Below, in pieces: positions 30,950-54,700 of a stretch of 64,000 nt of DNA. How positions within the stretch are numbered: the stretch's first letter is position 1; each line of letters begins with the position of its first letter. The stretch is from Sporocytophaga sp. (GTDB lineage: Bacteria > Bacteroidota > Bacteroidia > Cytophagales > Cytophagaceae). The notes under the pieces were generated by a model, which saw only the letters and a program-made list of their open reading frames with translations, did not search any database and had not been told where the DNA came from. Where the stretch lies: NCBI RefSeq assembly GCF_017745095.1, contig NZ_JAGHZZ010000007.1:151565-215564 (forward strand). The letters are read 5' to 3'. The position numbers and the translations under genes are program-made.

Positions 30950-32821
30950 CTATTTCTTATCTATATTAGCATCGTTAACAACAGCATTCTGTTGCATTCT
31001 TATTCTTCCAGCATAATCCCAATCAATCAAAGGATAAACATGATATTTCTTCGCTTCGATTTCATAAAGGTCTTTCAACTCCTTCAGCTTCTCAGGATGC
31101 TTTGCAGCCAGATTATTACGTTCATTAAAATCTTCATTCAGATTATATAACTCCCATACATCTTTGGTAGGATCTGAGACAATTGATTTTCTTTCTCCTT
31201 CGAATTGAGCAAAATCAATATAATCAGGATGATGAGCTGCTGCTGCTTTCCAACCATCTTTATAAATAGCTCTCGAACCTGCAATCGTATAATACTGCTG
31301 AGTATGTTTTGTTGGAGCATTCGGATCGGCAAAAGAAGAGTTTAGCTCTTGTCCTTCTAAAGGTGTCTGTACATAATTCTTTACCTTCTCAGGTAAGTTC
31401 AATCCTATCAGTTTAAGTGTGGTTGGATATATGTCAGTTATGTGCGCATACTGATTTCGGATCCCTCTTTCTTTGATTCCCTTTGGATAAAAGACAATTA
31501 ATGGATTATGCGTACCTCCTTCTGAAAAAGCATCTTGCTTCCAATATTTAAAAGGCGTATTTGTTGCCTGCGCCCATCCCAATGGATAGTTCGCTGAAGT
31601 AATAACATCTTTCGTGCCAATCTTATCATATTCACTTAGAACAAGTTTTCTATATTCTTCACGTGTCAGTTTATCTCTTCCAAAAGCAATAGATTTCGTT
31701 GTTACCCCATAATCGGTTCCCTCCTTGCTAGCTCCATTATCTCCAATGGAAACAAATATCACCGTATTTTCTAGCTGTCCGGTTTCCTTTAAATAAGTTA
31801 ATACTCTTCCAATCTCATAATCAGTGTACTCCAGGAATCCTGCATACACTTCAAAGAAACGCGCGAATAGTTTACGTTCTTCTTCAGGAAGGTCTTTCCA
31901 AGCTTTAACAAGTGAGTTACGAGCAGGAAGCGTAGCATTCGCAGGTACGGTACCAAGTTTCTTCTGATTAGCCAATACCTTTTCACGGTATACATCCCAA
32001 CCAGTATCAAATTTACCTTTATACTTGTCACTCCATTGTTTATCCACCTGATGAGGTGCATGAGTAGCGCCAGGAGCCCAATAAATGAAAAATGGTTTGT
32101 CAGGAGCTTTGCTTTTTAATCTCGTAATGTAACTGATTGCTTTATCTGCAAGCAGCTTATTCAGATGTGTACCATCAGGCTTAATGTGTTCATTATCTTC
32201 AACCAGGTCAGGTTTGTATTGATCTGTAGCTCCGCCAAGGAAGCCATAGTTGTGATCAAATCCTTTGCCTGAAGGCCAGCGTGTGAATGGACCTGCATCG
32301 GTTGTTTCTTCATCAGGTGTCAAATGCCATTTCCCAAGCTGGAAAGTTGCATAGCCATTCTCATTCAATACTTCCGCAATAGTAGCTTTTTCGCTAGGTA
32401 TTTTGCCATCATAACCAGGATAATCCGCCCTTACTGAATTACTGGGAAATAATCCCATGTGGGCAGAATGTGAGTTTCTACCAGTCAGCAAAGCCGCACG
32501 TGTAGGAGAACAGATACCTGTTGTATGAAAATTTGTATACCGAAGACCATTATTAGCAAGGCTATCAAGGTTGGGAGTATTGACTAATCCCCCAAAAACA
32601 CTGGCAGCACCGTAGCCAACGTCATCTATTAAAATCCAAATGACATTGGGCGCACCTGCAGGTGCTTTCTTACCTCCATATATAGTTTTATAAGCTGGTT
32701 GTGACTCCTGCCATGAAATGGAAATTTTACCTTCACCTGTTTTTTCTTCCTGTGCAAATGAAGGCGACAAAGTTGTCGCTGCCAGGAACAAGGCAGTTGA
32801 TATTTGTTGTATCTTTTGCAT
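30950..32821 (-). CDS. Secreted Cys-type arylsulfatase (third of tandem trio)
   Basis: Signal peptide; PNVIWILIDD, CSPTRAALLTGR, GKWHL, HAPH, DNGAS. Confidence 0.93.
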   Translation of the reverse strand: MQKIQQISTALFLAATTLSPSFAQEEKTGEGKISISWQESQPAYKTIYGGKKAPAGAPNVIWILIDDVGYGAASVFGGLVNTPNLDSLANNGLRYTNFHTTGICSPTRAALLTGRNSHSAHMGLFPSNSVRADYPGYDGKIPSEKATIAEVLNENGYATFQLGKWHLTPDEETTDAGPFTRWPSGKGFDHNYGFLGGATDQYKPDLVEDNEHIKPDGTHLNKLLADKAISYITRLKSKAPDKPFFIYWAPGATHAPHQVDKQWSDKYKGKFDTGWDVYREKVLANQKKLGTVPANATLPARNSLVKAWKDLPEEERKLFARFFEVYAGFLEYTDYEIGRVLTYLKETGQLENTVIFVSIGDNGASKEGTDYGVTTKSIAFGRDKLTREEYRKLVLSEYDKIGTKDVITSANYPLGWAQATNTPFKYWKQDAFSEGGTHNPLIVFYPKGIKERGIRNQYAHITDIYPTTLKLIGLNLPEKVKNYVQTPLEGQELNSSFADPNAPTKHTQQYYTIAGSRAIYKDGWKAAAAHHPDYIDFAQFEGERKSIVSDPTKDVWELYNLNEDFNERNNLAAKHPEKLKELKDLYEIEAKKYHVYPLIDWDYAGRIRMQQNAVVNDANIDKK

Positions 32822-32936
32822 CGTTTAATTTTATTTGGTTCACTATTGAGTTATTTGTAATTCAACTGCAGGTTCATCTTACTTGAATACTTTGATGGTT
32901 GAAAGCTGTTTGATATGATAAAAGCGATAAGAAATT

Positions 32937-32967
32937 AAAAGCGTTTCATTTCTGAAACGCTTTTTTT
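32937..32967. terminator. Terminator-like hairpin between sulfatase genes, similar in sequence to 30902-30937
   Basis: aaaagcgtttca-tttc-tgaaacgcttttttt. Confidence 0.75.
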
Positions 32968-32977
32968 CAATTCACAA

Positions 32978-35287
32978 TTATTTTGCAGGCTCTTCCGCCA
33001 ATTTAGGAGTTTCAATTAATTCAAGTACAACTTCATTTAACTTTCCGGTAAATGCAAACGGAGCCTTATATGCAGGAGTAACAGGTGTTCCCAGATCTCT
33101 TCCTACTTCCAGTCCATCATACCCGCTACTTGCATTACTTATCTTTCCAAGATTCTTTGAAGCTACTGGTTGACCATTGATAAATAAAGCGACTGATTTA
33201 TTCTTTCCATCATTGTTATAAGAAACCTCAGCCTTTAATGATACTTTTCCTGCAGGAATTTCTTTCTCTGATTTAATTTCAATCAGTTTTCCATCTGCAT
33301 TATAAGCAAAGGCAAGTTTTTTATCCTTAACATACAAACTTATTCCTGACAATACATTTCCAAAAGAGAATAATACTCCTTGTGTAGTAGATGTTACTTC
33401 TGCATTGGCTGTTATTGAGTAAGAGTCATTATAGAATTTAGGAGCTGCACTTCTTGATAAGAAGTTATCTTTATAAAGAACTATTTTTTTAGAATTACCA
33501 AAAACAGTTTGATTTTTTACTGCCCAGTCATCTTTTAACGGATACACGTTGTACTTCCATGCTTCTGCTTCAAAAGCTTCTGCAAGCTCTTTAACCTTTT
33601 CAGGATATTTTGCTGCCAGGTCGTTTTGCTCATTAAAATCTTCACGTACATTATACAAATACCATCTCTCTTCAGATGCAGGAATTCTTTTTGTGCGATC
33701 ATGCGGGAATGATGCTTTCCAACCATCTTTATAAAGACTATGAGAACCTGTCATTTCCTGATACTGAATATTATGTCTTTCTGCTACACCCTTATTGGCA
33801 GGATCTATAGTATATCCAAGACTTGTACCTTCGATCGGCTCCTGTGGATAACCATTAATGACTGTTGGTACTTTCACTCCGGCAAGTTCAATTGTAGTAG
33901 GAAGAATATCATTTACATAGGAATACTGATTGCGAATTCCTCCTTTATCTTTAATCTTTTTCGGATAAAAAAGAATTAAAGGATCATGAGTACCGCCTTC
34001 GAAGTTTCCATAACTCTTATAAAAACGGAAAGGTGTATTCGTTGCTGCTGCCCATCCGTCAGGCCATAGAGCCGAAGAACTTTCAGTACCCAACTTGTCG
34101 AGATTCTTCACTTCCTGCGCTAAGACCTGCTCACGAGTATCATCAGGGTTTGTGGTAATAAATCTTCCAAATTCTTTTGCACCACCTTCTGCCCCATTAT
34201 CTCCAATAAGTAGAGCTATAAGAGTGTTATCAAGCTGACCCAATTTTTCAACATAGTCAATGATACGACCGATCTCATGATCTGTCTGAGAAAGAAAACC
34301 TGCATATACTTCCATATGACGCAAATAAACTTTCTTCTCATCTTCTGATAATTTCTCCCATGGCTTCACACCCGGATTGGCTGGAGGCAATGTAGTGCCT
34401 GCAGGAACAACACCTTTTGCTATTTGATTCTTTAATACTGTTTCCCTGTATTTATCCCAACCAGCATCAAACTTTCCTTTGTATTTGTCTATCCATACTT
34501 TGGAGACCTGATGAGGCGCATGTACTGCACCAGGAGCAAAGTAAAGGAAGAATGGCTTATCAGGAGCTGCTGCCTTCTGTCCAGCAATAAAATTAATTGC
34601 TTCATCGGCAAAAAGTTCATTTACATGTCTTCCTTTGGGATCTTCCGGTTCTCTTTGTGTATCACGGTAAAGAATCGGATGCCATTGATCACCAGCTCCT
34701 GTTTCAGGAGGAAACCCATAGAAGTGATCAAAACCACGCCCTGTAGGCCAGCGGTTGAATGGCCCTGCCTGCGTAGCATCAGATGGATGCGTTAAATGGT
34801 ATTTACCAACAGCAAATGTATTGTATCCATTTTCACGAAGAATTTCTGCTGCAGTGGCTTTTTCAAAAGGTAAGTATCCATCATAGCCAGGCGTATCATA
34901 AGAAGTACTTGCAAAAAATCCAAAATGGGCAGAATGGGTATTTCTTCCTGTTAGCAATGCTGCTCTAGTCGGAGCACAGTATGCCGCAGTATGGAAGTTT
35001 GTATAACGTAGTCCTTGATTGGCCAGACGATCAAAATTAGGTGTCTCAATTAAACCACCAAATGCAGTGGAAGCTCCATAACCTATATCATCGATAAGTA
35101 TCCATATAATGTTGGGAGCACCCTCGGGAGCTTTTGGTTGTGTTTGTGGCCGGGACTCTTTAGTTTCCGCAAGTGTTTTTCCTATCTTTCCTTGGAAGGG
35201 TTGTGTAGGACTGTGCTGTGCATTGGCATAAAAACCAATTGTAAGTAAACTTGCCGATGCAAGTATTTTAAATTTATTTGATCTCAT
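32978..35287 (-). CDS. Secreted Cys-type arylsulfatase with C-terminal LamG-like extension (second of trio)
   Basis: Signal peptide; PNIIWILIDD, CAPTRAALLTGR, GKYHL, HAPH. Confidence 0.93.
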   Translation of the reverse strand: MRSNKFKILASASLLTIGFYANAQHSPTQPFQGKIGKTLAETKESRPQTQPKAPEGAPNIIWILIDDIGYGASTAFGGLIETPNFDRLANQGLRYTNFHTAAYCAPTRAALLTGRNTHSAHFGFFASTSYDTPGYDGYLPFEKATAAEILRENGYNTFAVGKYHLTHPSDATQAGPFNRWPTGRGFDHFYGFPPETGAGDQWHPILYRDTQREPEDPKGRHVNELFADEAINFIAGQKAAAPDKPFFLYFAPGAVHAPHQVSKVWIDKYKGKFDAGWDKYRETVLKNQIAKGVVPAGTTLPPANPGVKPWEKLSEDEKKVYLRHMEVYAGFLSQTDHEIGRIIDYVEKLGQLDNTLIALLIGDNGAEGGAKEFGRFITTNPDDTREQVLAQEVKNLDKLGTESSSALWPDGWAAATNTPFRFYKSYGNFEGGTHDPLILFYPKKIKDKGGIRNQYSYVNDILPTTIELAGVKVPTVINGYPQEPIEGTSLGYTIDPANKGVAERHNIQYQEMTGSHSLYKDGWKASFPHDRTKRIPASEERWYLYNVREDFNEQNDLAAKYPEKVKELAEAFEAEAWKYNVYPLKDDWAVKNQTVFGNSKKIVLYKDNFLSRSAAPKFYNDSYSITANAEVTSTTQGVLFSFGNVLSGISLYVKDKKLAFAYNADGKLIEIKSEKEIPAGKVSLKAEVSYNNDGKNKSVALFINGQPVASKNLGKISNASSGYDGLEVGRDLGTPVTPAYKAPFAFTGKLNEVVLELIETPKLAEEPAK

Positions 35288-35303
35288 TTTTAGTTTGATT
35301 GTT

Positions 35304-37157
35304 TTATTTTTTCTGTTCTGCTGTAGTCTTGATATTTTGCTTGATATAATACTCTATGTCTATCAAAGGATAGATATTATATTTTTCAGCTTCCTGATCA
35401 TACAAGGCCTTCAGCTCCTTTAACTTTTCAGGATATTTCTTCGCTAAATCATTACGTTCATTGAAGTCTTCGTTCAGATTGTATAATTCCCAAACATCAT
35501 TATCAGCATTGTTTACAAATACCGGCTTGGTTTCCCCCAGATATGAAGCAAGATCCAATGGATTTGGATGGTGTGCAGCAGAAGCTTTCCAACCATCCTT
35601 TACTATTGCTCGGTTTCCGAATATTGTATAATACTGTTGTGTATGTGTACTCGGAGCATTCTTGTCTTTTATTGCATAAGCCAGACTGTTTCCATGTAGA
35701 GGCTTCTGATTGATATTCTTAATTTTTTCCGGCTGCTGAATCCCTGTTAAATCAAGAATGGTTGGATAAATATCAATCACATGTCCGTATTGATTACGAA
35801 TTCCACCTTTCTCACTAATAGCCTTGGAATAAGAAAAGATCAAAGGATTGTGTGTTCCACCTTCAGCATTTGCATCTTGCTTCCATAACTTAAAAGGAGT
35901 ATTAGTTGCTTGAGCCCATCCTAAAGGGTAATTAGCGGAAGAGATAACTTCTTTACCACCAATTTTATCATATTCACTCTGAATAAACTTTTTATAATCT
36001 TCACGAGTCAAAGCATTTGTCACACCTGAAGTTACGTTAGGGTTTTGCGTGGTTACTCCATATTCGGTCCCTTCTTTACTTGCACCATTATCCCCTACAA
36101 TGACAAAAAAAGCAGTGTTATCAAATTGTCCGGTTGTTTTCAAGTGTGCAATCAAACGTCCTATCTCAAAGTCTGTATATTCTAAGAAGCCAGCATAGAC
36201 TTCCATGAATCTAGCATTCACCTTTTTTTCTTCAGGTGAAAGGTCTTTCCATGCATGAAGGAAACTGTTTCTATCAGGTAACTTAGCATTGGCCGGAATT
36301 ACACCTAACTTCTTCTGATTGGCAAAAACTGTTTCTCTATAAACATCCCAACCTGCATCAAATTTCCCTTTGTATTTATCACTCCATTCTTTCGCTACCT
36401 GGTGAGGCGCATGTGCTGCTCCTGTTGCATAATAGAGGAAGAATGGCTTATTAGGAGCGATAGCTTTTTGTTTGGTGATATAACTGATAGATTTATCTGT
36501 AAGCAATTTATTTAAATGACTTCCATCTGTTTTTACATGTTGATTGTCTTCTACAAGATCCAATTTATATTGATCCGTTGCGCCACCCAGGAAACTTAAG
36601 TTGTGATCAAAGCCCTTACCAGATGGCCATCTCAGAAATGGCCCAAGATCCGAATATTCTGAGCCCGGTGTTAAGTGCCACTTCCCAACTTGATAAGTGC
36701 TATACCCATTGGCCTGTAAAACTTCTGCTACAGTTCCATTCTCAGGTTGAATATATCCGTTGTAGCCTGGAAAGTCGGCATAGATAAACGGAGGTGGAAA
36801 TAATCCCATACCTACTGAGTGATGGTTACGTCCTGTAAGTAGGGCTGCACGTGTAGGTGAACAGATTCCTGTAGTATGAAAATTTGTATATCGAAGTCCA
36901 TTATTGGCTAGTGTATCCAGATTGGGAGTATTGATCAGGCCTCCAAAAGTGCTTATTGCTCCATACCCCACATCGTCTAAAAGGATCAACACTACATTAG
37001 GAGCTCCTTCTGGAGCTGCTTTGTTAAACTCGAGTTTATATGGTAAAGACTCGGAGGCATTTTTGGCAACCTTGCCTTTCCATTCTTGTGTCTGTTGTCC
37101 TTGGGATGCTAGTGCTCCGAGCAAAAGCATGGATGAAAATAGTATTTGTTTTTTCAT
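35304..37157 (-). CDS. Secreted Cys-type arylsulfatase (first of trio)
   Basis: Signal peptide; PNVVLILLDD, CSPTRAALLTGR, GKWHL, HAPH. Confidence 0.93.
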   Translation of the reverse strand: MKKQILFSSMLLLGALASQGQQTQEWKGKVAKNASESLPYKLEFNKAAPEGAPNVVLILLDDVGYGAISTFGGLINTPNLDTLANNGLRYTNFHTTGICSPTRAALLTGRNHHSVGMGLFPPPFIYADFPGYNGYIQPENGTVAEVLQANGYSTYQVGKWHLTPGSEYSDLGPFLRWPSGKGFDHNLSFLGGATDQYKLDLVEDNQHVKTDGSHLNKLLTDKSISYITKQKAIAPNKPFFLYYATGAAHAPHQVAKEWSDKYKGKFDAGWDVYRETVFANQKKLGVIPANAKLPDRNSFLHAWKDLSPEEKKVNARFMEVYAGFLEYTDFEIGRLIAHLKTTGQFDNTAFFVIVGDNGASKEGTEYGVTTQNPNVTSGVTNALTREDYKKFIQSEYDKIGGKEVISSANYPLGWAQATNTPFKLWKQDANAEGGTHNPLIFSYSKAISEKGGIRNQYGHVIDIYPTILDLTGIQQPEKIKNINQKPLHGNSLAYAIKDKNAPSTHTQQYYTIFGNRAIVKDGWKASAAHHPNPLDLASYLGETKPVFVNNADNDVWELYNLNEDFNERNDLAKKYPEKLKELKALYDQEAEKYNIYPLIDIEYYIKQNIKTTAEQKK

Positions 37158-37616: not shown

Positions 37617-38460
37617 TTATCGTCGATACTCTCGATCCATATAGTAGTATATATTCATGAGATCAACGAAGAGTTTTTTTTCACTGGCTTTATCATACCA
37701 GAATCCATCTGTGGAATAAAGAAAGTTATCCCACTCTAGTTTAAAACTTTCAGTCTTAGTAGTACCAACAAATTCATTCAGAGAAATGAATTTTGCTTCA
37801 ATATTTCTTTGTCCCTTTAGAGGTATCTTTTTATTCTGAGTCCAATAAAAATACTCCCCTGTGATGCTATAATCTTTGTATTCGTATAATGTCATTGATA
37901 CCTTGTACTTCTTATTTATTTTTTCAACAAAATGGTAATATGGTTTTACCTCCTGGCATAAGTACTTAATCCTAATAGCCATTTACCATAGTCGCTCAAG
38001 TATTCATTTATGTCGATAACCCGGAGATACTTTGATGAGCTATAATTGCAGTTCTGCCAGGCATGCGGATAGCACTCACCATTATAACTTGTAAAAATAG
38101 ATTCCTTACCAAGAATAAACCCATGATTCATTATATGACACCTAAACTCACATTGACCATCTAACTTGTATGCATTTTTGGATTCAAAATCACCGGTTTC
38201 ATTACCATAAGCACATTGATGCATTTCCCTTATAGATTGACGACAATCGCCTAACCAATATTTTTCTAAAAATCAAAATATTGGGTACCATCAATCAAAT
38301 CAGGTAATAAAATCAATTCCCCTTTTTCCAAATCGAACTGTAGGTTATCGGTTGCTGACCCGGAGGATATGCACCACCTGCCCAATCAACTTTTATTGTC
38401 ATCATAACGAACATCTTCAAGGTATAAGAAACTATTCCCACATTCCGCATTTAGCCTGCA
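37617..38460 (-). pseudogene. Multiply frameshifted remnant of an unknown (possibly DUF3298-like) protein
   Basis: Fragments GGAYP, FDLEKGELILLPDLID, FLEKYWLGDCRQSIREMHQCAYG and the 37617-37982 tail lie in different frames; family assignment weak. Confidence 0.55.
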
Positions 38461-38524: not shown

Positions 38525-39448
38525 TTAATCTTTTACAACTATCTTTGCTGTCTCCTTTGCAATTCCTATTGTAGCAACCGATCCACTATTAAACCTCAGA
38601 AAATCAGTTTCGATACCATCGCTGAATATGATTCCACTAGCTGGCATGAGTGATTCAATAGTCAGATAATTTTGATTTTTAATCAATCCTGCTGTTATTC
38701 CTGTTTGCGTCCTGATGCTCTGGAACGGCTCTCTGACAGCAAATAATAATTCATTGTCATTAAGAGCAGGCTTTTTAGGTTTCAAATTTTTTTCCAACAA
38801 ACCTGCGACCCCATAGGCCATGTTAAAAACGGAACTTAACCAGCCTGTTGAACCTGCCAGTGTTGAAACAATAAGCCCGCTAGAAGAATGTTCTTCCGTT
38901 TTTTTATTGAATGATATTCTATATCGTGCGGAAATATGTGAAGATGCTCCGATGAAAAGATCATTAAACGCCAAAAGCCTTTGTCCATCATTTAATCTGG
39001 CTTCGGCAAATCTCATTGTCTTTGATTGAAATTTATTACTGATTACATTTTCAATACCCAACATAAAGTTTGACGTATCAAAAGGTAGAAGAATACCGTC
39101 GTACCTTCCCTTGTCAGGATTTACTGCAACGATCGGACAAGACTTCGAATATTTTGCAGTGTTTGCAACTAGGCCATCTTGTCCTATTACGACAATTAGA
39201 TTTTTCTCTGAGAAAATGAAAGAAGGAAGATATATCCGTTCAACAGTTTTATTCTTTACAACCTTTGATAATTGTGTCTGTAAGGATATAAGTGAACTTT
39301 GAAATATTTCATGTTCCAGTTCATAATCATCAAAATTTCCGCCAAGACTTTCAATATAGAACTTTGCCTGAGCTTTTGTATTAAAGCGTTCAATTAAAGA
39401 TTCAAGCCTAGTCTTATTTTTTACAATAATGGCATACTCTATATTCAT
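38525..39448 (-). CDS. Divergent ATP-NAD kinase family protein
   Basis: VIGQDG (variant of GGDG), VN, AFND, SSGLIVSTLAGSTGW (variant of DG..VSTP.GST.Y). Confidence 0.82.
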   Translation of the reverse strand: MNIEYAIIVKNKTRLESLIERFNTKAQAKFYIESLGGNFDDYELEHEIFQSSLISLQTQLSKVVKNKTVERIYLPSFIFSEKNLIVVIGQDGLVANTAKYSKSCPIVAVNPDKGRYDGILLPFDTSNFMLGIENVISNKFQSKTMRFAEARLNDGQRLLAFNDLFIGASSHISARYRISFNKKTEEHSSSGLIVSTLAGSTGWLSSVFNMAYGVAGLLEKNLKPKKPALNDNELLFAVREPFQSIRTQTGITAGLIKNQNYLTIESLMPASGIIFSDGIETDFLRFNSGSVATIGIAKETAKIVVKD

Positions 39449-40467
39449 TTTCTGATGTCTTTCTTATCATTAAGGATTGAATCCAAAAGCTCCGGACTAA
39501 TATTTAGACTTCCTATTTTATCCGCATTTTCAGCCAATTGTCTAAAGGCAAGCGAAATATTAAACTTTGGATCAGGATTATTATTTAAAGCTGTCAAGGT
39601 CTTCCAATCGATGTCTTTATATGGTCTTAATGTAGTTTCAATTACATATCCTCTCGTTTCTGCTTCTTTCTTATCATTAGCAGTTTTCTGCTCAATCAAT
39701 TGCTTTCTATGATTTTCAACTGCTATATCTGCTTCTAGTCTCATCTCCCGGAGTTTCCTGTCGTTTTCTGCCTTTTGCACTTCGGACTCCATCTTCTTTT
39801 CTGCAATTTGCTTTTGCTTCTCTTCAACAGCGATTTCAGTATTTAATTCTGATTCTTTGATTTTTCGTTCTTGTTCAACAGCAAAATTCCGACGTTCGTA
39901 AATAGCCTGATCCGCCTCTTGTTGTAGCTTCTCCCTTGTCTCAGTTTCAAGTGCTCTGGACATTTCAGGAGTAGCTTTAATTGCTAGAATGTTTGCTCCT
40001 AAAATTTCAATACCTAGCATTGCAATAGCTTGTGAAGATTTAAGACCTTCCAATATTTGTTCTTCAATACCTTTTGCTGAACGGATAGCGTCTTTCAGTT
40101 TTATTTCATGAATAAATGAAGAGGTCGCCGTTTGGGCATCATTAATGATCCTTTGATTCAACTTTTCTATATCGTTCTTCTTATACTGTCCGTTGTCATT
40201 AACAGTAAAATCTAATACATCTGCCAAAGTCTTAGGCTGGCGGATTTTATAACTGATCTGTCCTTGAATATTAACGGTCTGATAGTCGTTGGTAGATTCA
40301 TTAAAGATGAAAGGTAAATCGTTGCTTCCCATAGGAATGGCAACAATTGAGCTATTGGGTGAAAAATAAAAAAATGAAAGACCTCTACCCTCTCTTTTTA
40401 TACTTCCGTTCTTATAATGAAGAACGTAAGTCATTGAATCAAATTTAATGTGCTTTATTCCAAACAT
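39445..40467 (-). CDS. SPFH/band-7 domain protein with long coiled coil, no N-terminal TM helix
   Basis: T.DYQTV.IQGQISYKI..P..LA..LDF SPFH core; TPEM.RALET..RE..QQEAD.AIYERR..AVEQER.I coiled coil. Confidence 0.88.
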   Translation of the reverse strand: MFGIKHIKFDSMTYVLHYKNGSIKREGRGLSFFYFSPNSSIVAIPMGSNDLPFIFNESTNDYQTVNIQGQISYKIRQPKTLADVLDFTVNDNGQYKKNDIEKLNQRIINDAQTATSSFIHEIKLKDAIRSAKGIEEQILEGLKSSQAIAMLGIEILGANILAIKATPEMSRALETETREKLQQEADQAIYERRNFAVEQERKIKESELNTEIAVEEKQKQIAEKKMESEVQKAENDRKLREMRLEADIAVENHRKQLIEQKTANDKKEAETRGYVIETTLRPYKDIDWKTLTALNNNPDPKFNISLAFRQLAENADKIGSLNISPELLDSILNDKKDIRK

Positions 40468-40572
40468 ATTCCTATTGTAATTTTTTAGATTAAGCTCCTA
40501 AAATATGGAGCTATAAAGTTTAATATTGTGTATTACTTTTTCACTTTAGAAATGAACGACTGAACGATTACT

Positions 40573-43500
40573 CTAATAAACAAAATATGGTCTCTCAGTA
40601 ACAAATAACATCTTATCAGCCTTTTCCTTCCAGCTTTTCGGAGACTTTTCTCCCAAATAAACAGCACCTAAAACATAGGCATGTCCTTTCATTTTAATTG
40701 ATAACTCTTTGATTTTTTCTTCTGCTTTTTCAGGAGCTTCTCCATTTTGAAGAGATTTCACAAATGCGTCAAATCTATAAAAATCCGATGGAGAGTAGGT
40801 GCGCAGAATAACCATATAAGGACTAATATCTTTTCCTTTTCTTGCTAATAACCCAATACTCGGAGTTATACTATTCATATTTAAGCCTTCTTCAGGACTT
40901 AAATTAAGAAACTCTTGAACAATGTTTTCGGAAACTCCGTCTGATGCTGCCGCCAGCCTGAGAGCAAATGAACGATTATCCCCACTACTACCTGATACTT
41001 TTAAAGCTTCATTAAGATAGCCTTTAGACAAATTAACATAGATTAAAGAAACGGAGTCTGTCAAAGTTCCCCATTCTAATTGGGTTATATATTCAAGATA
41101 ATCCGATTTCCATGAATTTTCAACCAGCTTATTATAATTCATCTTATGTATCCGCGCAATATCTACGCAAACACTATTTAGAGAAGGTTCTTTTTCTATT
41201 GCATTTCTCAAAGCCTTTTCTGCAAGTGTCCAATTTTCCTGACTTGTCAAAACGTATCCTCCTGCCAAAGAAAGCCATGCATTGTCAGGCCATTTGTTAT
41301 AACCATCTATAAATGCCTTATCTTGCTCCGGACCATCTTCCATGCAACGAATTGCCAGGTAATACAAATCTGCATTTTCAGGATCTTTCTTGTACCTTTC
41401 CTCACAATCACGACAGACTTTTTTTGCCTGCACCTCTGACACTGCATCCTGCATGCTTCTGAGAGTGATTACTTCATTTTTGTTTCTTTTTAATCTTAAT
41501 GCAAGTAAGGTATCTCCGTCTTTCATAGTTGCTGCCACTGACAACCAAGAACCAAGACTTTTGGATTTAGTATCATCCCAAAGTATGTGACTCCTGATGA
41601 GATTTAAACTGTCTAACTTATCATTGACAACAGAAAGCACTTCATAGGGGCTATTTCCATAATCAGTAAGTAATGACTTAAATTCAGAGGATCCTCTTTT
41701 TAATTTAATAGTTTCAGGAAAGTCTGTAAAAAAATAATCCGCATCCGATTTAAACCACCTTGGAGCTCCATATACTTTCTGCTGAGGAGCATAACTTGAA
41801 CTTATTGAAGTAGCATAGGAATAAAAAGTTGTCCATTTCTGCATCACTGCAGCTGAGGCTATATTGTACACTAATGTCCCGCTCTCGCTATTGAGTTCTT
41901 CCTCGAATTTTTCAATCAGCGTCCCATCTTCCGTTCTGGATTCTACAGTAAATTTCCCATCCGTTGAAATAGATATTTTTTCATTGGACAATGGTTCCAA
42001 CCTTATACTTTCATCTGCAATATTTACCGATACAGGTGTTGATAAGCCATTGTATATAATCAGATCAGTTTCAGTTACTGATTGTCCCGCAAAAAAAGCA
42101 ACACCTATAATGGATGCTGCAACTGAAAATCTGGCAATAGTTGGTATTAACCCATCAGCAGAGTAAAACCTATCCCACAGATTCAGTTTAAGCTCTACTT
42201 TACTTTCATTGCCATTCAATAAAAGAGGATATGTATAAGATATACTGGAAACAGAAGGAGCTGCGCCAGGATTAGCAGATGTCTGATAAGCAGAAGCTAG
42301 CTTTTCTTCTGTTGCAATCAGTTCTTCCAATGCCCCATCCTTCAGTTTTTCAAGACTATTAACCGCAAGATTAATCCAGCTATCCACAACTCCTATCCAA
42401 CCATTAATATTTTCATTATTGGCATATCCAAGTTTAAATTCTTCAAGGAGTGAAGACCAACTTTCTGCATTCATTCTAGCCAGGACTAAAGTCCCCGGAT
42501 TTACACTTGATGTATTATTATAAATGACTTCAAGCGACCTTGTAATATTTCTCGCGTCGCTCAATAATCTGTTCATTTCGGAAGAAGAAACATTCCCATC
42601 TGCCAGAATTACTCTTAGAGTGTTATCAAATACTCTTTTGTAATCTGCAATGATAGCAACAGAATGTTCTGCATAATGTATGAGACTTACAAGTCCCTTC
42701 AGATAGGTGTTCCACGAAGGATCAAAACTTTCACCAATATTAGAATGTATAGATCTGAGTTTTTGATTGTATTTCAGAAATTTTTGCTGCTGCTCATTCA
42801 CTTCTCTTTTTAGTCGAGAAATTAATTCCGGTAAATCCTTTCTTTTTATCTCCTTGCCTTCATGCAATATTACGCCTCCCGGAGCATCATACACTTTATC
42901 AAATAATGCCTGAAGCATTATTATTTCTTCGTTTCTGCTTTCAAGCAACTCCAGTTCCTGCTTCAATGACTCAGGGTACAAATCTTTCAAAAACTCATGA
43001 ATCTCTTCATTCCTATATTGATTAGAATAAAGTTCATCAACTTTTTCAACATCTCTGGCAAGAGAATACTTAAGATAATAACCTCTGTATTTGGGATTAT
43101 AGAAAATCTTATTATATCTTTTATCTATCTCCTCAATGGCTTGCTCATTGCTAATATCTACTATCTGCTTGTCCTTGATAACAATATGCTTGTAAAGATG
43201 CTTGGTCATCTTTTTCTTAAGTTCTTCAGCATCTTTAAATAATATCCATGAGCTACGTTCGTCCTTTGGAGCATCGATATAAGTTCGTTTAGCGTTTTCC
43301 TCCCTTTCAAAACCTGAAGGGTGCGTAGACCACATTTTAGGAGGACTTGCAAGATGTTTTTTGAAAATTCGCTGAGAGGAAGAATTTTCTATTACCGGTG
43401 GATTCCCATATTCCGGTTTATCGATTATGACACCAATCTTCTTTATAAAATATTTCTGAAGGTTAAATACATCTGAGACTGCCTTCCCTTCATATAAAGC

Positions 43501-44394
43501 TTCTACACCATACTGAACCGATTGATCCCATGCATTATCCGCTGCTTCTAGTCTATATAAACCATTTACAATTGCATCACTACCTGTTAATGATACAGCA
43601 ACCAGGTCTGCATTAAATTCCATTTCTCTGGAAAGCGCTCTTTCAGCCAATATTACAATCGTGAATAAAGTATCCATCAAGGACCTGATCGCCCAAACAA
43701 ATATACTTAATAACCATCCTATCCATGCGATTCTCAGATCAAAGCTTGAAATCCCTTTAATCATATTATCAAACCAATCTCTGGCGCCAACTATGTGAGA
43801 AGCTATCTGTCTGGATATATATACCCACCTGCCCACAGCCATTGTCTTTTGGGCAAAATGGCCAAATTCATGCGCAAGAACAGCTTTAAATTCATTAAGT
43901 GTAAGTGAGTTTACAAGACCTAAACCTATTTCAAGATTTTTTTTGGTCGGAAATACCAGATTGATAATAGAAAGATCATAAAAAACCGAAGCGTTTACTC
44001 GTGCTGATAAATATACACGATGAGGCCTTGGTGCTCCTGCATTATCAGCAACCTCATTAATAAATTTAAATAGCTCAGGCTCTTGCTTTTCTGTTATTTC
44101 AAAATCATCACCTTTATCGAATCTCTTAATAAAAAATAAGGCCTTGGTTAAAAAGAGCGCAAGGAATGCCATGATTACCCCTACAATCAAATTCAGGAAT
44201 GGATTACTTCCTGTGCCAACATTCATAAATGATTTTACTGAGGTAGAGGCAAAAAAATAAATGAACCAAAAATAAAGAAGTACGAATACACACAAACCAC
44301 TAAGTGCAAGCCAAGCATGAAGCTTATATTTGGAAGTCGGTTTAGTGAGGTTCTCAGGTACGGACTTTGGACCTTTAGGATAATATATTTCCAT
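40573..44394 (-). CDS. Large M48-family (HtpX-like) membrane metalloprotease with TPR-like C-terminal region
   Basis: VNASV, AVLAHEFGH, SREMEFNAD, STHP motifs; TM segments; helical repeat tail. Confidence 0.9.
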   Translation of the reverse strand: MEIYYPKGPKSVPENLTKPTSKYKLHAWLALSGLCVFVLLYFWFIYFFASTSVKSFMNVGTGSNPFLNLIVGVIMAFLALFLTKALFFIKRFDKGDDFEITEKQEPELFKFINEVADNAGAPRPHRVYLSARVNASVFYDLSIINLVFPTKKNLEIGLGLVNSLTLNEFKAVLAHEFGHFAQKTMAVGRWVYISRQIASHIVGARDWFDNMIKGISSFDLRIAWIGWLLSIFVWAIRSLMDTLFTIVILAERALSREMEFNADLVAVSLTGSDAIVNGLYRLEAADNAWDQSVQYGVEALYEGKAVSDVFNLQKYFIKKIGVIIDKPEYGNPPVIENSSSQRIFKKHLASPPKMWSTHPSGFEREENAKRTYIDAPKDERSSWILFKDAEELKKKMTKHLYKHIVIKDKQIVDISNEQAIEEIDKRYNKIFYNPKYRGYYLKYSLARDVEKVDELYSNQYRNEEIHEFLKDLYPESLKQELELLESRNEEIIMLQALFDKVYDAPGGVILHEGKEIKRKDLPELISRLKREVNEQQQKFLKYNQKLRSIHSNIGESFDPSWNTYLKGLVSLIHYAEHSVAIIADYKRVFDNTLRVILADGNVSSSEMNRLLSDARNITRSLEVIYNNTSSVNPGTLVLARMNAESWSSLLEEFKLGYANNENINGWIGVVDSWINLAVNSLEKLKDGALEELIATEEKLASAYQTSANPGAAPSVSSISYTYPLLLNGNESKVELKLNLWDRFYSADGLIPTIARFSVAASIIGVAFFAGQSVTETDLIIYNGLSTPVSVNIADESIRLEPLSNEKISISTDGKFTVESRTEDGTLIEKFEEELNSESGTLVYNIASAAVMQKWTTFYSYATSISSSYAPQQKVYGAPRWFKSDADYFFTDFPETIKLKRGSSEFKSLLTDYGNSPYEVLSVVNDKLDSLNLIRSHILWDDTKSKSLGSWLSVAATMKDGDTLLALRLKRNKNEVITLRSMQDAVSEVQAKKVCRDCEERYKKDPENADLYYLAIRCMEDGPEQDKAFIDGYNKWPDNAWLSLAGGYVLTSQENWTLAEKALRNAIEKEPSLNSVCVDIARIHKMNYNKLVENSWKSDYLEYITQLEWGTLTDSVSLIYVNLSKGYLNEALKVSGSSGDNRSFALRLAAASDGVSENIVQEFLNLSPEEGLNMNSITPSIGLLARKGKDISPYMVILRTYSPSDFYRFDAFVKSLQNGEAPEKAEEKIKELSIKMKGHAYVLGAVYLGEKSPKSWKEKADKMLFVTERPYFVY

Positions 44395-44663: not shown

Positions 44664-46991
44664 TTAGAAAAAAATCGTGAAAGTCGAGCCTTTACCTAAT
44701 TCACTTTCCACCTCAATATGCCCACCTGTGTTTTCAATCATTTTTTTCACAATATATAGTCCCACTCCAGTCCCCTCCACATGAGTATGCAAACGTTTAA
44801 ACATCTGGAACAATTTGCCTTGTTGCCGTTTATCCAATCCCAGACCGTTATCTTTAATAGAAAGTATTATATTGCCTTCTTCTAACCTTTCCGTTTTTAT
44901 ATTGATTACAGGGTCTCGTTCACTTCTATATTTAATAGCATTGCTCAGGAGATTATACATAATACTTCGTAGATTTTTTTTAGAAAAATGAATTGAAGCA
45001 ATCTGAATATCTTCTATAAAAGTTACTTTGTCCATTTTTATCTGCTCTCTGTAATCTTGCTTAAAATCATTTATAATAGTATTAAATGAAATATCTTCAG
45101 CAGCATCATGTACACCTCTTTGAATTCTGCTAATTTCCGTTAATTCTTCTATAGTAATTTTTAACCTTTCAATTGAAGTTTTTATCATCTCAATAAGCGA
45201 CTGCTGTTCTTCTGATTTAATATTTTTACTCCCTTCAAAAATAATATCCACCAATGCTTCCATATTAATGATAGGAGCTTTCAGATCATGAGAGGCTGTA
45301 TAAATAAAATTATCAAGATCATTGTTAATCCTAAGTAATTCAAAATTTTTCTTTTCAAGTTTTTTTTCATTTTCAATTCTTTCTGTAAGATCTATTCCCA
45401 TAATCACCACTCCCCTTACCTTATTTTCAAATATATCAGGAATAAAATTGAGGCTAATAGTCTTTGATAACTTGCTTTTTAATTCCAATTCAATTTCAGC
45501 AGAAGTTTCATTTCCAGATAATGATCCGTTCAACAATTCATGAAATATGTTATAAGTTTCTTCATCCATCCCATCCTGAATTGCTTTACCCTCAATACTA
45601 TCAGAGACATTTCTGATCTTCTTAAAGTTCTGATTGGCAAACTGACATACATTATCTTTATTGATATACGCTATCATTGCAGGTATTGCATTGGTTATAA
45701 GACTCAACTGGCTCTCTCTTTTTTTTAGCTCATAGGTTCTTTCCCTTATTTTTTCCTCCAGATTTTGATTCGCCGCTTTTAATTTATCCTGAATTTCTTT
45801 AAGCTCCGTTATATCTCTTGAAATCGAAAGGATATGGGTTACATTGCCTTCTGCATCCCTTTGAAAAGGGATTTCTCTCGAAGCTGTCCAATTCCATTTC
45901 CCGGTATTAGGGTCCTTCACACTAAATTCAAATGTAGTGATCTCATCATCTTTTAATTTTCTATATTTTTCATACCTGGCTTTTATTGCTGAATTTTCAT
46001 CCGGATGTAAAATGCCCCATTCCGTAAGCATATCAGCAGTCACTCCCAAATATTTTTCTGGCTCACGATTAATATAAACAACTTCTCCTGTATTCAAATC
46101 AACTATAAAAATGGAATCAGGTGTGGTCTCTGCAACCTTTTGACTGAACAATTGGCTCTCCTTTAATTCTTCCTCTACCTCCTTTCTATCTGTGATGTCC
46201 ATCACGATTCCTATAATCTGGCAAACATTTCCATTTTTATCTCTTCTGAAAACTTTTTCTCTTGAATAAAACCATCTATACTCCCCGTTTACATCCTTTA
46301 TTCTATAATCCAATGACCTTACTTCATCATCTTCTGCACTTTTAAAGCCATCAAAATAGTCTTCTATCAGCTGAACATCATCCGGGTGTATTAACTCTGA
46401 TACAATCGATTTCCCCATACTTTTCAATTGGTCGGAGCTATAGCCAAGGGATTCATTCAATTCTTTATTTGAATAGATATTCTTTTTTTCATTTATATCA
46501 TATACATACAATTTATTAGGACTAGCTTCAGCCAGATTTTGTATAAAGTGCTTATGTTTTTCCAAAGCTTTTACGTGATCATTCAGCCGGTCTTTTAAAC
46601 TACGAAATGAAAGATTATCTATAATAGTCAGAATTTTTGGTGCAAGCACATATAAGGCATAAATCACCCCTAATGAAGCAATTGAAGTAATGCCCCTGAC
46701 AATAAACTCAAGCCTATAAATTGGATTCCAAACAGTTAATACATCGATAAGATGACTAATTCCAGTCCCTGTAATAAAAAGAAAAATGAGCAGGACCCAC
46801 CAGTATCGTCTAAAATCTTTTCTCTTCCAAATAATATATCCTATAATGAAAGAGATAATAAAAAAAACGAGGGAAGTAATGGCGTCAGAAATAACATTGA
46901 TCCACATAGTGTCAAGTTTCCCTAAAATAAATTGAGTAATCCTCCCAAAAAGCAAACTTAATAAGGTCATCAACGATTGGGTATAAAACAA
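44664..46991 (-). CDS. Sensor histidine kinase: ethylene-receptor-like 3-TM domain, PAS/PAC domains, HisKA, HATPase
   Basis: ISD...F.I...G.SHL N-terminus; two PAC motifs; ASHDLKAP H-box; NLLSNAIKY, DNGLG, FQMF, GTGVGL boxes. Confidence 0.92.
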   Translation of the reverse strand: MFYTQSLMTLLSLLFGRITQFILGKLDTMWINVISDAITSLVFFIISFIIGYIIWKRKDFRRYWWVLLIFLFITGTGISHLIDVLTVWNPIYRLEFIVRGITSIASLGVIYALYVLAPKILTIIDNLSFRSLKDRLNDHVKALEKHKHFIQNLAEASPNKLYVYDINEKKNIYSNKELNESLGYSSDQLKSMGKSIVSELIHPDDVQLIEDYFDGFKSAEDDEVRSLDYRIKDVNGEYRWFYSREKVFRRDKNGNVCQIIGIVMDITDRKEVEEELKESQLFSQKVAETTPDSIFIVDLNTGEVVYINREPEKYLGVTADMLTEWGILHPDENSAIKARYEKYRKLKDDEITTFEFSVKDPNTGKWNWTASREIPFQRDAEGNVTHILSISRDITELKEIQDKLKAANQNLEEKIRERTYELKKRESQLSLITNAIPAMIAYINKDNVCQFANQNFKKIRNVSDSIEGKAIQDGMDEETYNIFHELLNGSLSGNETSAEIELELKSKLSKTISLNFIPDIFENKVRGVVIMGIDLTERIENEKKLEKKNFELLRINNDLDNFIYTASHDLKAPIINMEALVDIIFEGSKNIKSEEQQSLIEMIKTSIERLKITIEELTEISRIQRGVHDAAEDISFNTIINDFKQDYREQIKMDKVTFIEDIQIASIHFSKKNLRSIMYNLLSNAIKYRSERDPVINIKTERLEEGNIILSIKDNGLGLDKRQQGKLFQMFKRLHTHVEGTGVGLYIVKKMIENTGGHIEVESELGKGSTFTIFF

Positions 46992-51771: not shown

Positions 51772-54700
51772 ATGGAAAGTGAAGTAAGAGTATTAAGACA
51801 AAATGTAAGGTTACAAAAAAATAGTTTAGATAAACTCAAAGAAAAACTATCGCATCTCAACGAAAACAAATTTTCCTCATTTATACTATCACTAAGTGCA
51901 TTTATTGCTTTGGCAAAAAGATATACAGATCAAGATAAATTCTTAGTATCATATAATAACTCAATACACCCCAATGGAAATGTATTGAACAAATCAAATC
52001 AAAGGATCTCCTATATAGAAATAGATCTTTCAGAAGATCCTACTTTTGAAATTTTAATTCAACAATTGAATGATAAAATTCAAAAAGATACAGAGAGAAC
52101 AATAGCAGATAAAAAGGACTCTTATCCATTTGTTGTTAATTTTTCCTTTGATGATATACTTGAAGATGGTAGTTCCAATCTTAATTTAAATTTACAAAGG
52201 ACAGACAATCAAAATACCTTACCAGTTCTTTCAATTAATTTATCTAATTCCGAAGAGGATGTCATGTGTGGTTGCCTTGAAGCAAGACTAGACTTGATGG
52301 AAATTTCTATCTCTGAAAATAGTAATGAACACTATTGCAATATTTTAAGAGAAGCGATAATAAATCCTCAAAAGAGAATCTCCGAATGTAATATGTTGGA
52401 TGAAGCTGAAAGAAATAAAATTCTTTTTGAATGGAATGCAACTGAAAAAAATTACCGCAATAATATATGTTTACATCATTTAATAGAAGAACAGGTAGAT
52501 AAAACTCCTGATTCAACAGCCGTCATTTACAACGGTCATTCACTAACTTATAAGGAATTAAATAGAAGAGCTAACATTGTAGCGGCACGTTTAATTAATA
52601 GAGGAATAAAAGAAGAAGACCTTGTTGCTGTATTGTTTGAATTATCATTAGAATCTGTCGTAGCTATAATAGGAGTTTTAAAAGCTGGTGCTGTTTATGT
52701 TCCACTTGACACCAACTATCCTGTTAAGAGAATACAATTACTAGTGGACGATTCCAAACCAAAATTATTAATTACCAATTCAAGTTTAAAAGGTTTATTA
52801 GAGTTTCCAGAAGAGAAAAAACTTATAATAAGTGATAATGATTGGCTAAATAATGATTATTTAGCTAATCCGAAAACGGGTGTTAAACCTGAAAACGCGG
52901 CATATGTAATGTACACCTCCGGTTCTACGGGATCTCCTAAGGGAATTGTAATACAACATAATAGTGTTGTGAATAACATAATGTTGATAAAGGATCGATA
53001 CATGCTTACCCCAGAAGATACTGTTCCTTCTATGCCTTCATTAGCATTTGATGCTTCAGTTTCCAAGTTATTCCCGATATTAACTATAGGTGGAACAGTT
53101 GTACTTCCAACAGAAGAAGAAATAAGAGACGTAGAAAAAACGCTTGAATTAATCAATAAATACAATATGCCTTATTTTTCTACACCTCCAAGCATATTAA
53201 GAGTCATTAATTCAATTAATCCTGATTTATCGAAACTACGCAGTATATCTTGTGGAGGTGAAGCGTTGAAATTTTCAGATGTTAGTAATCTTAATAAACA
53301 CGTCCCTATAATTAACATATATGGGCCTACCGAAGCAACCGTTTCTTCCTGCACTTATACAATACCGAAAAACTCCAGCCCTATTACTTCTCGCATCCCA
53401 ATAGGAAAACCCAACCCTAACTGCAAGGTGTATATATTAGATAAACATTTAAATTGTATGCCCGTCAATTGCTATGGAACAATATATATTGGAGGAATTG
53501 GCGTAGCACGTGGTTATTTAAACAATCCGGAGTTAACAACACAAAGATTTATTAAAAGCCCTTTTGTAGAGGGAGAAGTATTGTACAATACTGGAGACAT
53601 TGGCAGGTGGCTACCAGATGGGAATATCGATTTCATTGGTAGAAATGATAATCAGATAAAGATAAGAGGTTTCAGGATTCAGATAGAGGAGGTTGAAAAG
53701 ATATTAATAAAGCACCCATCTGTTAACGAAGGTAAAATCATTGTTAAAGGCACAAGTAATGAAGATAAATTCATGGTCGCCTGTGTAATTCCAAAAGAGG
53801 GAGAAAGTTTGTCAATAGAATCGATGAGAGACTTTATTGAAAAATATTTACCTGATTATATGGTTCCTTCCGACCTTATACTTCTTGACCATTTTCCCCT
53901 TAATCAGAATAACAAGGTAGACTCAAAAGCTCTACTTCAAAAATATGACGAAAAAAAACCTATTCAACAACAAAAGGTATCTATCAGCAAGAATAGCATT
54001 GAGAAAGAACTCGTTATCTTTTGGAAAGAGATCCTGAATAAGGAAATCAATATTCAGGAAAATTTTTTCCACGCAGGAGGACATTCGCTTCATGCCATGC
54101 AACTGAAAATGTATATCAATAAGAAATTCAATACAGATTTTTCGATGAAAGACATTTTCAATAATCTTACAATTGAAAAATTAACTTCTTTAATAGCATC
54201 AAAAGCTCAAGTAAATGAAGATAATATTAATATATCAAATAGCCACCAAAACAAGAATCCTTTTATTGCTGAAAAACAAAGTATAGAAAATATAACTCCT
54301 ATCGAAGTATCAAACATAAGAACCCAAACTTTGGATACTTCAATAAATAAAAATGAGATAGGTTTAATTACCTCAAAAGATAAAGAAAGTAGCTTATATC
54401 AGTTGTTCTTCAAAAAACCAACATTATTTGACCTGTCATTTAACGAAAGAAGATTATGGTTTCTCTACCAATTTCTTCCTAATAAAGCTACTTACAATGT
54501 AGTTAAAGCCTATAATTTGTCAGGCAAATTGAATACAGGTGTATTAGAAAAAAGTGTAAAACAACTACTGGATAAGCATTTAAATTTAAGAAAAAACTTT
54601 ATTGAAGTAGATGGAGAACCTAAAGCTAAATTAAATTATAAAGCGACCTTTAAAGTAAGAGTATGCTGTTTATCTGATTTTTTAAAATCAACTTCTGACG

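Follow-up and report, generated by a model that had tools for sequence, protein, structure and literature searches.

The genes nrtX and nrtY were listed as genes of unknown function in the 2008 reconstruction of NrtR regulons, in which NrtR proteins are predicted repressors that adenosine diphosphate ribose (ADP-ribose), a product of the cleavage of nicotinamide adenine dinucleotide (NAD), frees from DNA in vitro, and in which a 21-bp palindrome with a GT-N7-AC core is the common NrtR motif (Rodionov et al. 2008, PMC2330246). Table 1 of that paper gives the layouts 'Proteus mirabilis nrtR<#>nrtX-nrtY', 'Streptomyces #nrtR2; #nrtX-nrtY', and 'Hahella ... #nrtX-nrtY' alongside NAD salvage operons; nrtXY is the sole NrtR target given there for Proteus, and in Hahella one NrtR-binding profile serves both the NAD salvage genes and nrtXY (PMC2330246). 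The closest enzyme described in detail is the human mitochondrial NAD kinase NADK2, in which D161 of the GGDG motif is catalytic, W319 stacks on the nicotinamide, K76 contacts the diphosphate, and H191 stacks on the adenine, and in which an insert (EMKA) that supports the dimer and blocks the tetramer is said to be confined to animal mitochondrial kinases (Du et al. 2022, PMC9245612). The C5orf33/NADK2 type is recognized by a Trp replacing the Tyr of GST-A-Y, a Ser replacing the Asp at the head of that segment, and the motif PX-GXN(T/S)DP (Ohashi et al. 2012, PMC3535332); W319 is described in both papers (PMC3535332 and PMC9245612). Here we describe a 64,000-nt stretch of a Sporocytophaga sp. 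genome (contig NZ_JAGHZZ010000007.1; "the window" below means this whole stretch, not the gene pair), in which a gene for an SPFH/Band 7 protein overlaps a gene for an NADK2-type NAD kinase-like protein, and in which this pair is very probably a copy of nrtX-nrtY.

The two genes were located on the minus strand from the list of open reading frames (ORFs) of the window, and their coordinates and parts are given in the table below. The plus-strand sequence TCAT at their junction reads ATGA on the coding strand, so that the ATG of the kinase gene shares bases with the TGA of the SPFH gene, as had been noted in the preliminary description of this DNA. To establish how widely the arrangement occurs, relatives of the kinase were scanned in one genome per species, for 185,579 species, and were found in at least 599 of them. 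The phyla among the best 80 of these include Bacteroidota, Acidobacteriota, Planctomycetota, Chloroflexota, Spirochaetota, Nitrospirota, Proteobacteria, Myxococcota, and others. An SPFH gene of the same subfamily lies directly upstream on the same strand in 86/86 related loci; the 4-base overlap is retained in 33 of the 86, and in most of the others the gap is 15 bases or less. A search anchored on the SPFH gene shows the same pairing, the pairwise distances of the SPFH and kinase proteins are correlated (r 0.88), and in one cluster representative, P0219, the SPFH protein and the kinase are naturally fused. Such pairing goes far beyond what chance would give and supports the view that the pair is a conserved, co-inherited functional unit; the invariable association in the 86 loci and the correlated distances thus bear out the conservation on which the preliminary description depended. 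In a further cluster representative, P0232, the kinase is followed by approximately 260 C-terminal residues in which several hydrophobic segments were seen by eye, probably a membrane domain; among plasmids, its kinase part is matched best on one of Roseomonas (L096), directly after an SPFH gene.

The SPFH protein of the window is approximately 90% identical to proteins of Saprospiraceae, Roseivirgaceae, and Paludibacter, and the kinase 80 to 86%. At the DNA level the similarity of the pair to these distant Bacteroidota is 66 to 78% and ends at the ORF boundaries, with identities of 0.91, 0.95, and 0.45 (0.42 to 0.52) at codon positions 1, 2, and 3, the third position being near saturation. 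The G+C content of the pair is 35%, like that of its surroundings. Recent horizontal transfer as the source of the high protein identity was rejected on the basis of the saturated third positions, the loss of DNA similarity at the ORF ends, and the G+C content. The substitution pattern indicates that purifying selection on the pair is strong, which sets it apart from typical conflict genes.

The kinase-like protein of the window has no Pfam match, including to the Pfam NAD_kinase family, and its best score against the NCBIfam NAD kinase models is 31 bits, compared with cut-offs of 211 to 493. A search of 1.84 billion cluster representatives placed it in a family of 1,882 clusters at E ≤0.001, 213 of them below 1e-30. 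The AlphaFold2 model, built from 129 sequences with a mean predicted local distance difference test score (pLDDT) of 94, has the two-domain NAD kinase fold. Foldseek comparison of the model with the PDB gave human NADK2 as the top match (7r4j/7n29; template modeling (TM) score 0.79, E 2e-20); next came NAD kinases of bacteria, yeast, and the human cytosol, with TM scores of about 0.6. All of the top 50 PDB matches are NAD(H) kinases and none is a lipid kinase, and a lipid or diacylglycerol kinase reading of the fold was rejected for this reason. The family profile ranks the PDB sequences in the same way, with E values of 1e-15 for NADK2 and about 1e-4 for canonical NAD kinases.

The active-site motifs agree with this placement. 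The family-wide motifs are G[QPR]DGLV, ND[LF]FI, and STG-x-GSTGW; residues G89, D91, G92, N162, S189, G191, G199, S200, and W203 are invariant in two independent alignments, and D91, N162-D163, S190, and W203 are reported invariant in the family. The window kinase carries N162-D163 and G199-S200-T201-G202-W203, and thus possesses the Asp of G-x-D-G, the N-E/D motif, and the Gly-rich GST-x-Y/W motif, with the second Gly of the first replaced. The Trp and Ser of the NADK2/C5orf33 type are both found, W203 and S190 aligning to the SSG...GSKAW segment of NADK2. For the motif PX-GXN(T/S)DP of this type, the family consensus is a near-match, QPI-x-(A/G)VNPDP, with a Pro where Thr or Ser would be expected, and the window sequence is PIVAVNPDK; the N-x-DP element after the GGDG strand may thus be a feature in common with NADK2. 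The basic residue K10 aligns with K76 of NADK2, and from these alignments D91, W203, and K10 would be the equivalents of D161, W319, and K76, respectively. After the Trp, the model has a helix at residues 203 to 218 and a loop to residue 233, a segment of about 30 residues whose start is set by the HMMER alignment against the start of the NADK2 dimerization insert; we infer that the two segments could have the same role. By sequence and model, then, the enzyme is a bacterial NADK2-type kinase and not a canonical NadK, and the conservation of its motifs indicates that it is probably active. The differences from human NADK2 are the identity of only about 17%, GQDG in the window kinase for GGDG, the loss of H191, the lack of a targeting peptide, and the location of the gene in an operon with an SPFH gene. 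With canonical NadK/PpnK the kinase shares the two-domain fold and the positions of the catalytic motifs, and it is set apart by its scores and by the Trp/Ser signature.

The GQDG sequence and the Trp in place of the usual Tyr had been singled out in the preliminary description as divergent features of this kinase; both are present, and both hold throughout the family. The same description had credited the kinase with an extra helical N-terminus of roughly 75 residues, which is overstated: GGDG is at residues 71 to 74 in E. coli NadK and GQDG at 89 to 92 in the window kinase, a difference of only about 18 residues. The first strand of the N-terminal domain begins at residue 5 of the AlphaFold2 model, and the helical stretch (approximately residues 14 to 61) falls between strands one and two, its counterpart in the alignment being the N-terminal region of human NADK2. 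The stretch is integral to the modeled domain and no appendage.

SPFH proteins form rings or cages. The SPFH protein of the window matches Pfam Band_7 with an E value of 5.6e-14 (53 bits; cut-off 23.6), and its model, of modest quality (pLDDT 64), shows an SPFH domain, one very long helix, and a small conserved C-terminal region. As the preliminary description had stated, it lacks a transmembrane anchor: neither an N-terminal transmembrane helix nor a hydrophobic hairpin was found, the SPFH domain begins directly, and the maximum 19-residue Kyte-Doolittle mean of 1.74 falls within a predicted beta strand of that domain, leaving no qualifying hydrophobic segment. The long coiled coil of that description is visible in the model as a single helix of about 108 residues, 64% of them Glu, Lys, Arg, Gln, Ala, or Asp, and highly conserved. 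Foldseek matched the model about equally to stomatin, erlin, HflK/C, flotillin, prohibitin, and QmcA (E ~1e-8 to 1e-6), whereas the family profile against the PDB gave a best E value of 0.007, far in sequence from the solved and characterized members. The nrtX-like product belongs to a divergent, anchor-less SPFH subfamily. It resembles the cage assemblies QmcA-YbbJ (SPFH-NfeD) and HflK/C-FtsH in those structural matches, in the succession of SPFH domain, predicted long helix, and C-terminal region, and in the location of its gene beside that of a dedicated partner. It differs from them in having no transmembrane segment or hydrophobic hairpin, and in place of a membrane protease or NfeD protein it has a soluble nucleotide kinase as its partner.

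When all ORFs flanking the pair were clustered, the only recurrent neighbor was a protein with Nudix and NrtR winged-helix domains. Of 82 loci, 22 have its gene within 6 kb of the pair; in Bacteroidota the gene precedes the pair on the same strand, and in Acidobacteriota it lies downstream. Ahead of their SPFH gene, these NrtR-linked loci carry 21-bp palindromes, often in tandem, of the form TTTGTGT-N7-ACACAAA in Bacteroidota and TAGTGTC-N5-GACACTA in Acidobacteriota, both with the GT-N7-AC core. A strict box within 250 bp upstream of the SPFH gene is present in 13/22 NrtR-linked loci and 6/57 others, compared with a background of about 0.02 per 250 bp. Putative operators of the NrtR type occur in Bacteroidota, Acidobacteriota, Planctomycetota, Chloroflexota, Proteobacteria, and Streptomyces. 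Genes for ADP-ribose handling are also found among the neighbors: five NADAR, two Macro, and one ADP-ribosylglycohydrolase (ADP_ribosyl_GH). The preliminary description had proposed that the kinase possibly acts on NAD or ADP-ribose-type signals and had put forward a gene-neighborhood survey for Nudix/NrtR genes, and it is this part of its interpretation that the nrtR genes, the putative operators, and the ADP-ribose-handling neighbors support.

Individual loci reproduce the published nrtX-nrtY layouts. In P. mirabilis, a Nudix/NrtR gene is divergent from the SPFH-kinase pair, with two boxes in between, and on a Streptomyces plasmid the pair is preceded by two tandem boxes (TTTCGTC-N5-GACGAAA type, GT-N7-AC) with no adjacent nrtR. 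A NUDIX gene divergent from the pair is annotated in replicons of Providencia, Rhizobium, and Methylomonas. On plasmid pALWED1.1 of Acinetobacter lwoffii, where the annotation covers the NUDIX and kinase genes, two boxes lie ahead of an SPFH start that is not annotated, in a layout like that of Proteus. Because the Proteus and Streptomyces layouts and their boxes match those of PMC2330246, we regard the SPFH-kinase pair as very probably nrtX-nrtY. The match is one of arrangement and not of accession numbers, as nrtX and nrtY are named without gene identifiers or protein families in the text of PMC2330246. Literature searches for SPFH with NAD kinase, or for SPFH with NrtR, returned no paper linking them.

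Several loci have additional features. The gene order in Chryseobacterium is nrtR-NADAR-2OG oxygenase-SPFH-kinase, the oxygenase being a small 2-oxoglutarate (2OG)-Fe(II) enzyme. NADAR genes are inside or beside the module in Chryseobacterium, Lewinella, Fulvivirga, and Dysgonomonas (L041, L044, L048, L062, L017). In Chryseolinea (L050), a DUF4291 gene immediately precedes the SPFH gene, and four other loci contain ORFs of the same cluster. The nrtR-SPFH-kinase genes are directly beside tetR-tet(J) in P. mirabilis (L087, 5915-7822) and directly beside tetR(H)-tet(H) on A. lwoffii pALWED1.1 (L090, 5921-7835), and the module seems to travel with the tet(J)/tet(H) tetracycline-resistance region. 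The window kinase has an identical match (46.6% identity, same score) on Moraxella and two uncultured-bacterium plasmids.

We give somewhat better than an even chance to the reading that the pair encodes an accessory NAD(H) kinase that an SPFH oligomer holds or gates and that is tied to ADP-ribose-signaled NAD turnover, as a copy of nrtX-nrtY. According to this proposal, breakdown of NAD would let ADP-ribose accumulate and derepress the NrtR-controlled operon; the kinase would then phosphorylate NAD(H) to NADP(H), or act on a closely related ADP-ribose-containing dinucleotide, and would be bound, enclosed, or gated by the SPFH ring or cage, possibly at the inner face of the membrane. A number of observations weigh against it. 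The kinase scores far under all curated NAD kinase thresholds, Gln, Pro, or Arg takes the place of the second Gly of GGDG throughout the family, and the adenine-stacking H191 of NADK2 is not conserved, an Ile or Val being aligned there; the substrate could therefore differ from NAD. The confidence of the SPFH model is low (pLDDT 64, from a shallow alignment), and the oligomer and its contact with the kinase are putative. The gene overlap points to comparable levels of the two proteins, as would be expected of a stoichiometric complex more than of a cage that carries little cargo. Neither an nrtR gene in the 64 kb nor an NrtR-type operator upstream of the SPFH gene was found in the window, in which the NrtR operator search gave one match, 21 kb away and at chance level. 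Most loci of the near clade of the window likewise lack nrtR and the operator, and the ADP-ribose logic may not apply in the window; without the NrtR connection, expression in it must be controlled otherwise.

The same departures from the NAD kinase motifs (G[QPR]DG, ND for NE, and the lost adenine-stacking His) speak for an alternative in which the fold acts on another ADP-ribose-linked substrate, such as ADP-ribose itself, a 2'-phospho derivative, nicotinic acid adenine dinucleotide, or a signaling nucleotide, so that the NrtR-SPFH-kinase module would sense and then process or detoxify ADP-ribose-type molecules rather than synthesize NADP. This would be in keeping with the NADAR, Macro, and ADP-ribosylglycohydrolase neighbors, with nrtXY as the only NrtR target listed for Proteus, and with the response of NrtR to ADP-ribose (PMC2330246), since repressors often have as effector the substrate of the operon under their control. 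However, the Trp that stacks on nicotinamide in NADK2 is invariant, which points to a dinucleotide with an aromatic second base, and the Hahella profile that spans NAD salvage genes and nrtXY fits NAD(P) supply; we consider a different substrate unlikely, while still giving it appreciable weight. Degeneracy at the second position of GGDG and the very low scores on curated models could also be taken to mean that the kinase-like protein has no catalytic activity and is a client, structural or regulatory, through which bound NAD(P) or ADP-ribose is reported to the SPFH assembly, and the similar protein amounts implied by the gene overlap would suit such a role. Against this, the Asp and both flanking Gly residues are invariant over hundreds of 50%-identity clusters, as are ND and SSG...GSTGW, a pattern typical of an active enzyme, and loss of activity is accordingly given little credence here.

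That the kinase is instead a divergent form of the housekeeping NadK of this organism is highly improbable. No second NADK-like ORF was found in the window, but for a stretch that covers so little of a genome this is very weak evidence. In P. mirabilis, the one place where the question can be checked, the kinase is accessory: on chromosome record NZ_OL790811.1 a canonical NadK (74% identical to that of E. coli) is encoded at 2.72 Mb and the pair lies at 3.26 Mb, and with a normal NadK present the kinase there is an addition to it. NadK is universal, whereas the kinase of the pair is patchy, being found in a small minority of species and, within a genus such as Flavobacterium, in few species. 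None of the 5,426 complete E. coli genomes has it at the level of DNA similarity covered by the search (~65–70% identity or more), and the module occurs also on plasmids and chromids. The suggestion in the preliminary description that this is not an ordinary housekeeping NadK is in line with the patchy distribution and the coexistence with NadK. Another part of its interpretation, an anti-phage module, is not supported. In such an anti-phage or abortive-infection system, the SPFH cage would activate or release the kinase on infection and so alter the NAD pool or a nucleotide signal. NAD depletion and ADP-ribose are central to many defense systems, the module is found on plasmids and chromids, and the gene of a RES-family NAD+ phosphorylase (toxin) lies 2.6 kb from it on a Rhizobium sp. 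Pop5 chromid (L091, 8511-9068), which may be coincidence. Nudix-type regulators occur in predicted conflict systems, although the ADP-ribose-sensing ones described are built around other enzymes, without the SPFH-kinase pair (Iyer et al. 2022, PMC9503650). PADLOC gave no match for either protein or for their neighbors, no defense family is recurrent among about 300 neighbors of the pair, and the genes around it in the window (three sulfatases, an M48 peptidase, a PAS histidine kinase, a monooxygenase, a glycosyltransferase, and nonribosomal peptide synthetase (NRPS) genes) form no defense island. In Providencia, the module is among the core genes lnt, corC, and ybeY. Typical defense genes evolve fast, and the very slow evolution of the pair across distant Bacteroidota is unlike them. 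GenBank phages gave no match to the pair and IMG/VR only two weak loci among 2.9 million contigs, on which grounds a phage origin was also rejected. We hold a direct defense role to be unlikely, with only a slim chance that the pair is an anti-phage or abortive-infection module, although it may have an indirect role in surviving NAD depletion.

The accessory NAD(H) kinase reading can be extended to a more specific proposal, which we put forward as a doubtful one: NrtX would form a new kind of SPFH assembly, an anchor-less ring or closed shell with the NADK2-type kinase as its dedicated client, an ADP-ribose-inducible compartment that secures or rebuilds the NADP(H) pool when NAD is under attack from NADase toxins, phage defense, or DNA damage, and the family would be the prokaryotic sister or source of NADK2, including the dimerization insert. 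If this were true, an insert held to be animal-specific would have a bacterial counterpart. Independently of this extension, the pair is a real, conserved module in which an NADK2-type kinase has an SPFH protein as its obligate partner. Here the client of the SPFH protein would be a defined soluble enzyme that is easy to assay; the coupling over hundreds of species makes SPFH function directly testable. The kinase would be a second type of NAD kinase in bacteria, for which textbooks describe a single NadK, and human NADK2, a disease gene, gains clear bacterial relatives. The assignment puts protein families on nrtX-nrtY, genes that have stood as 'unknown function' in the NrtR regulon since 2008, and ties them to ADP-ribose signaling, which is now central to toxin and phage-defense biology.

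Upstream of the SPFH gene of the window, a palindrome (AGCTCC-N8-GGAGCT) lies approximately 25 to 45 bases before the start codon. By inspection, several Bacteroidota loci without NrtR (the loci of this kind being L007, L008, L010, L012, L027, L029, and L032) share a CGTT-N9/10-ATTTTAGG-like element about as far ahead of the SPFH gene, which may be the promoter of an alternative sigma factor or the site of another regulator. A scan of the window for sigma-70 promoters and terminators gave matches at chance level, and an Rfam scan of the window found one tRNA only. In a search of RNA-seq data for the pair, its sequence was found only in soil and aquatic metagenome DNA runs.

Table. Features of the SPFH-kinase gene pair, with positions in the 64,000-nt window
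Feature	Position	Strand	Basis
SPFH/Band 7 gene, nrtX-like, 340 residues	39445..40467	-	ORF list, Pfam Band_7, model, Foldseek, 86/86 loci
SPFH domain proper, residues 15-193	39889..40425	-	Pfam Band_7 envelope
Single long charged helix, residues 167-275, with highly conserved ALETETREKLQQEADQAIYERRNFAVEQERKIKESELNTEIAVEEK core	39643..39969	-	DSSP on model, composition, conservation
ATGA overlap, SPFH stop/kinase start	39445..39448	-	Sequence
NADK2-type NAD kinase-like gene, nrtY-like, 307 residues	38525..39448	-	ORF list, NCBIfam, AlphaFold2 model, Foldseek, profile
GQDG motif, residues 89-92, predicted catalytic Asp91 (~ D161 of NADK2)	39173..39184	-	Codons GGA CAA GAT GGC; conservation
GSTGW motif, residues 199-203, Trp203 (~ W319 of NADK2)	38840..38854	-	Codons read from sequence; conservation
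105-bp region upstream of SPFH gene, palindrome AGCTCC-N8-GGAGCT at 40493-40512	40468..40572	-	Sequence, pattern search

The gene directly upstream of the pair (40573-44394, minus strand) encodes a protein of 1273 residues. Its N-terminal part is an M48/HtpX-like peptidase (HEFGH) set in a membrane region, and its C-terminal extension, about 900 residues long, gives a weak TPR-like match. By analogy with SPFH-protease systems the gene was considered as a third member of the module, and was rejected because no homolog of it occurs in the 86 loci. Just downstream of the kinase gene, two overlapping ORFs of 121 and 92 residues in different frames (37617-38224, minus strand) may represent an orphan gene broken by a frameshift; neither has a match in Pfam or PADLOC or a relative among the related loci. 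Three sulfatase paralogs lie in tandem at 30950-37157 (minus strand). The minus-strand gene at 44664-46991 encodes a histidine kinase whose membrane N-terminus matches the N-terminal domain of the ethylene receptor ETR1 (E 3.6e-20), followed by several PAS domains and then HisKA/HATPase. Two adjacent NRPS ORFs, 51772-55014 and 55164-58265, are 150 bases apart, and a Condensation domain is divided between them, its first half (profile positions 7-190) at the end of the first ORF and its second half (254-455) at the start of the second. This has the look of an NRPS gene that is interrupted or frameshifted, or of a condensation domain that is split.

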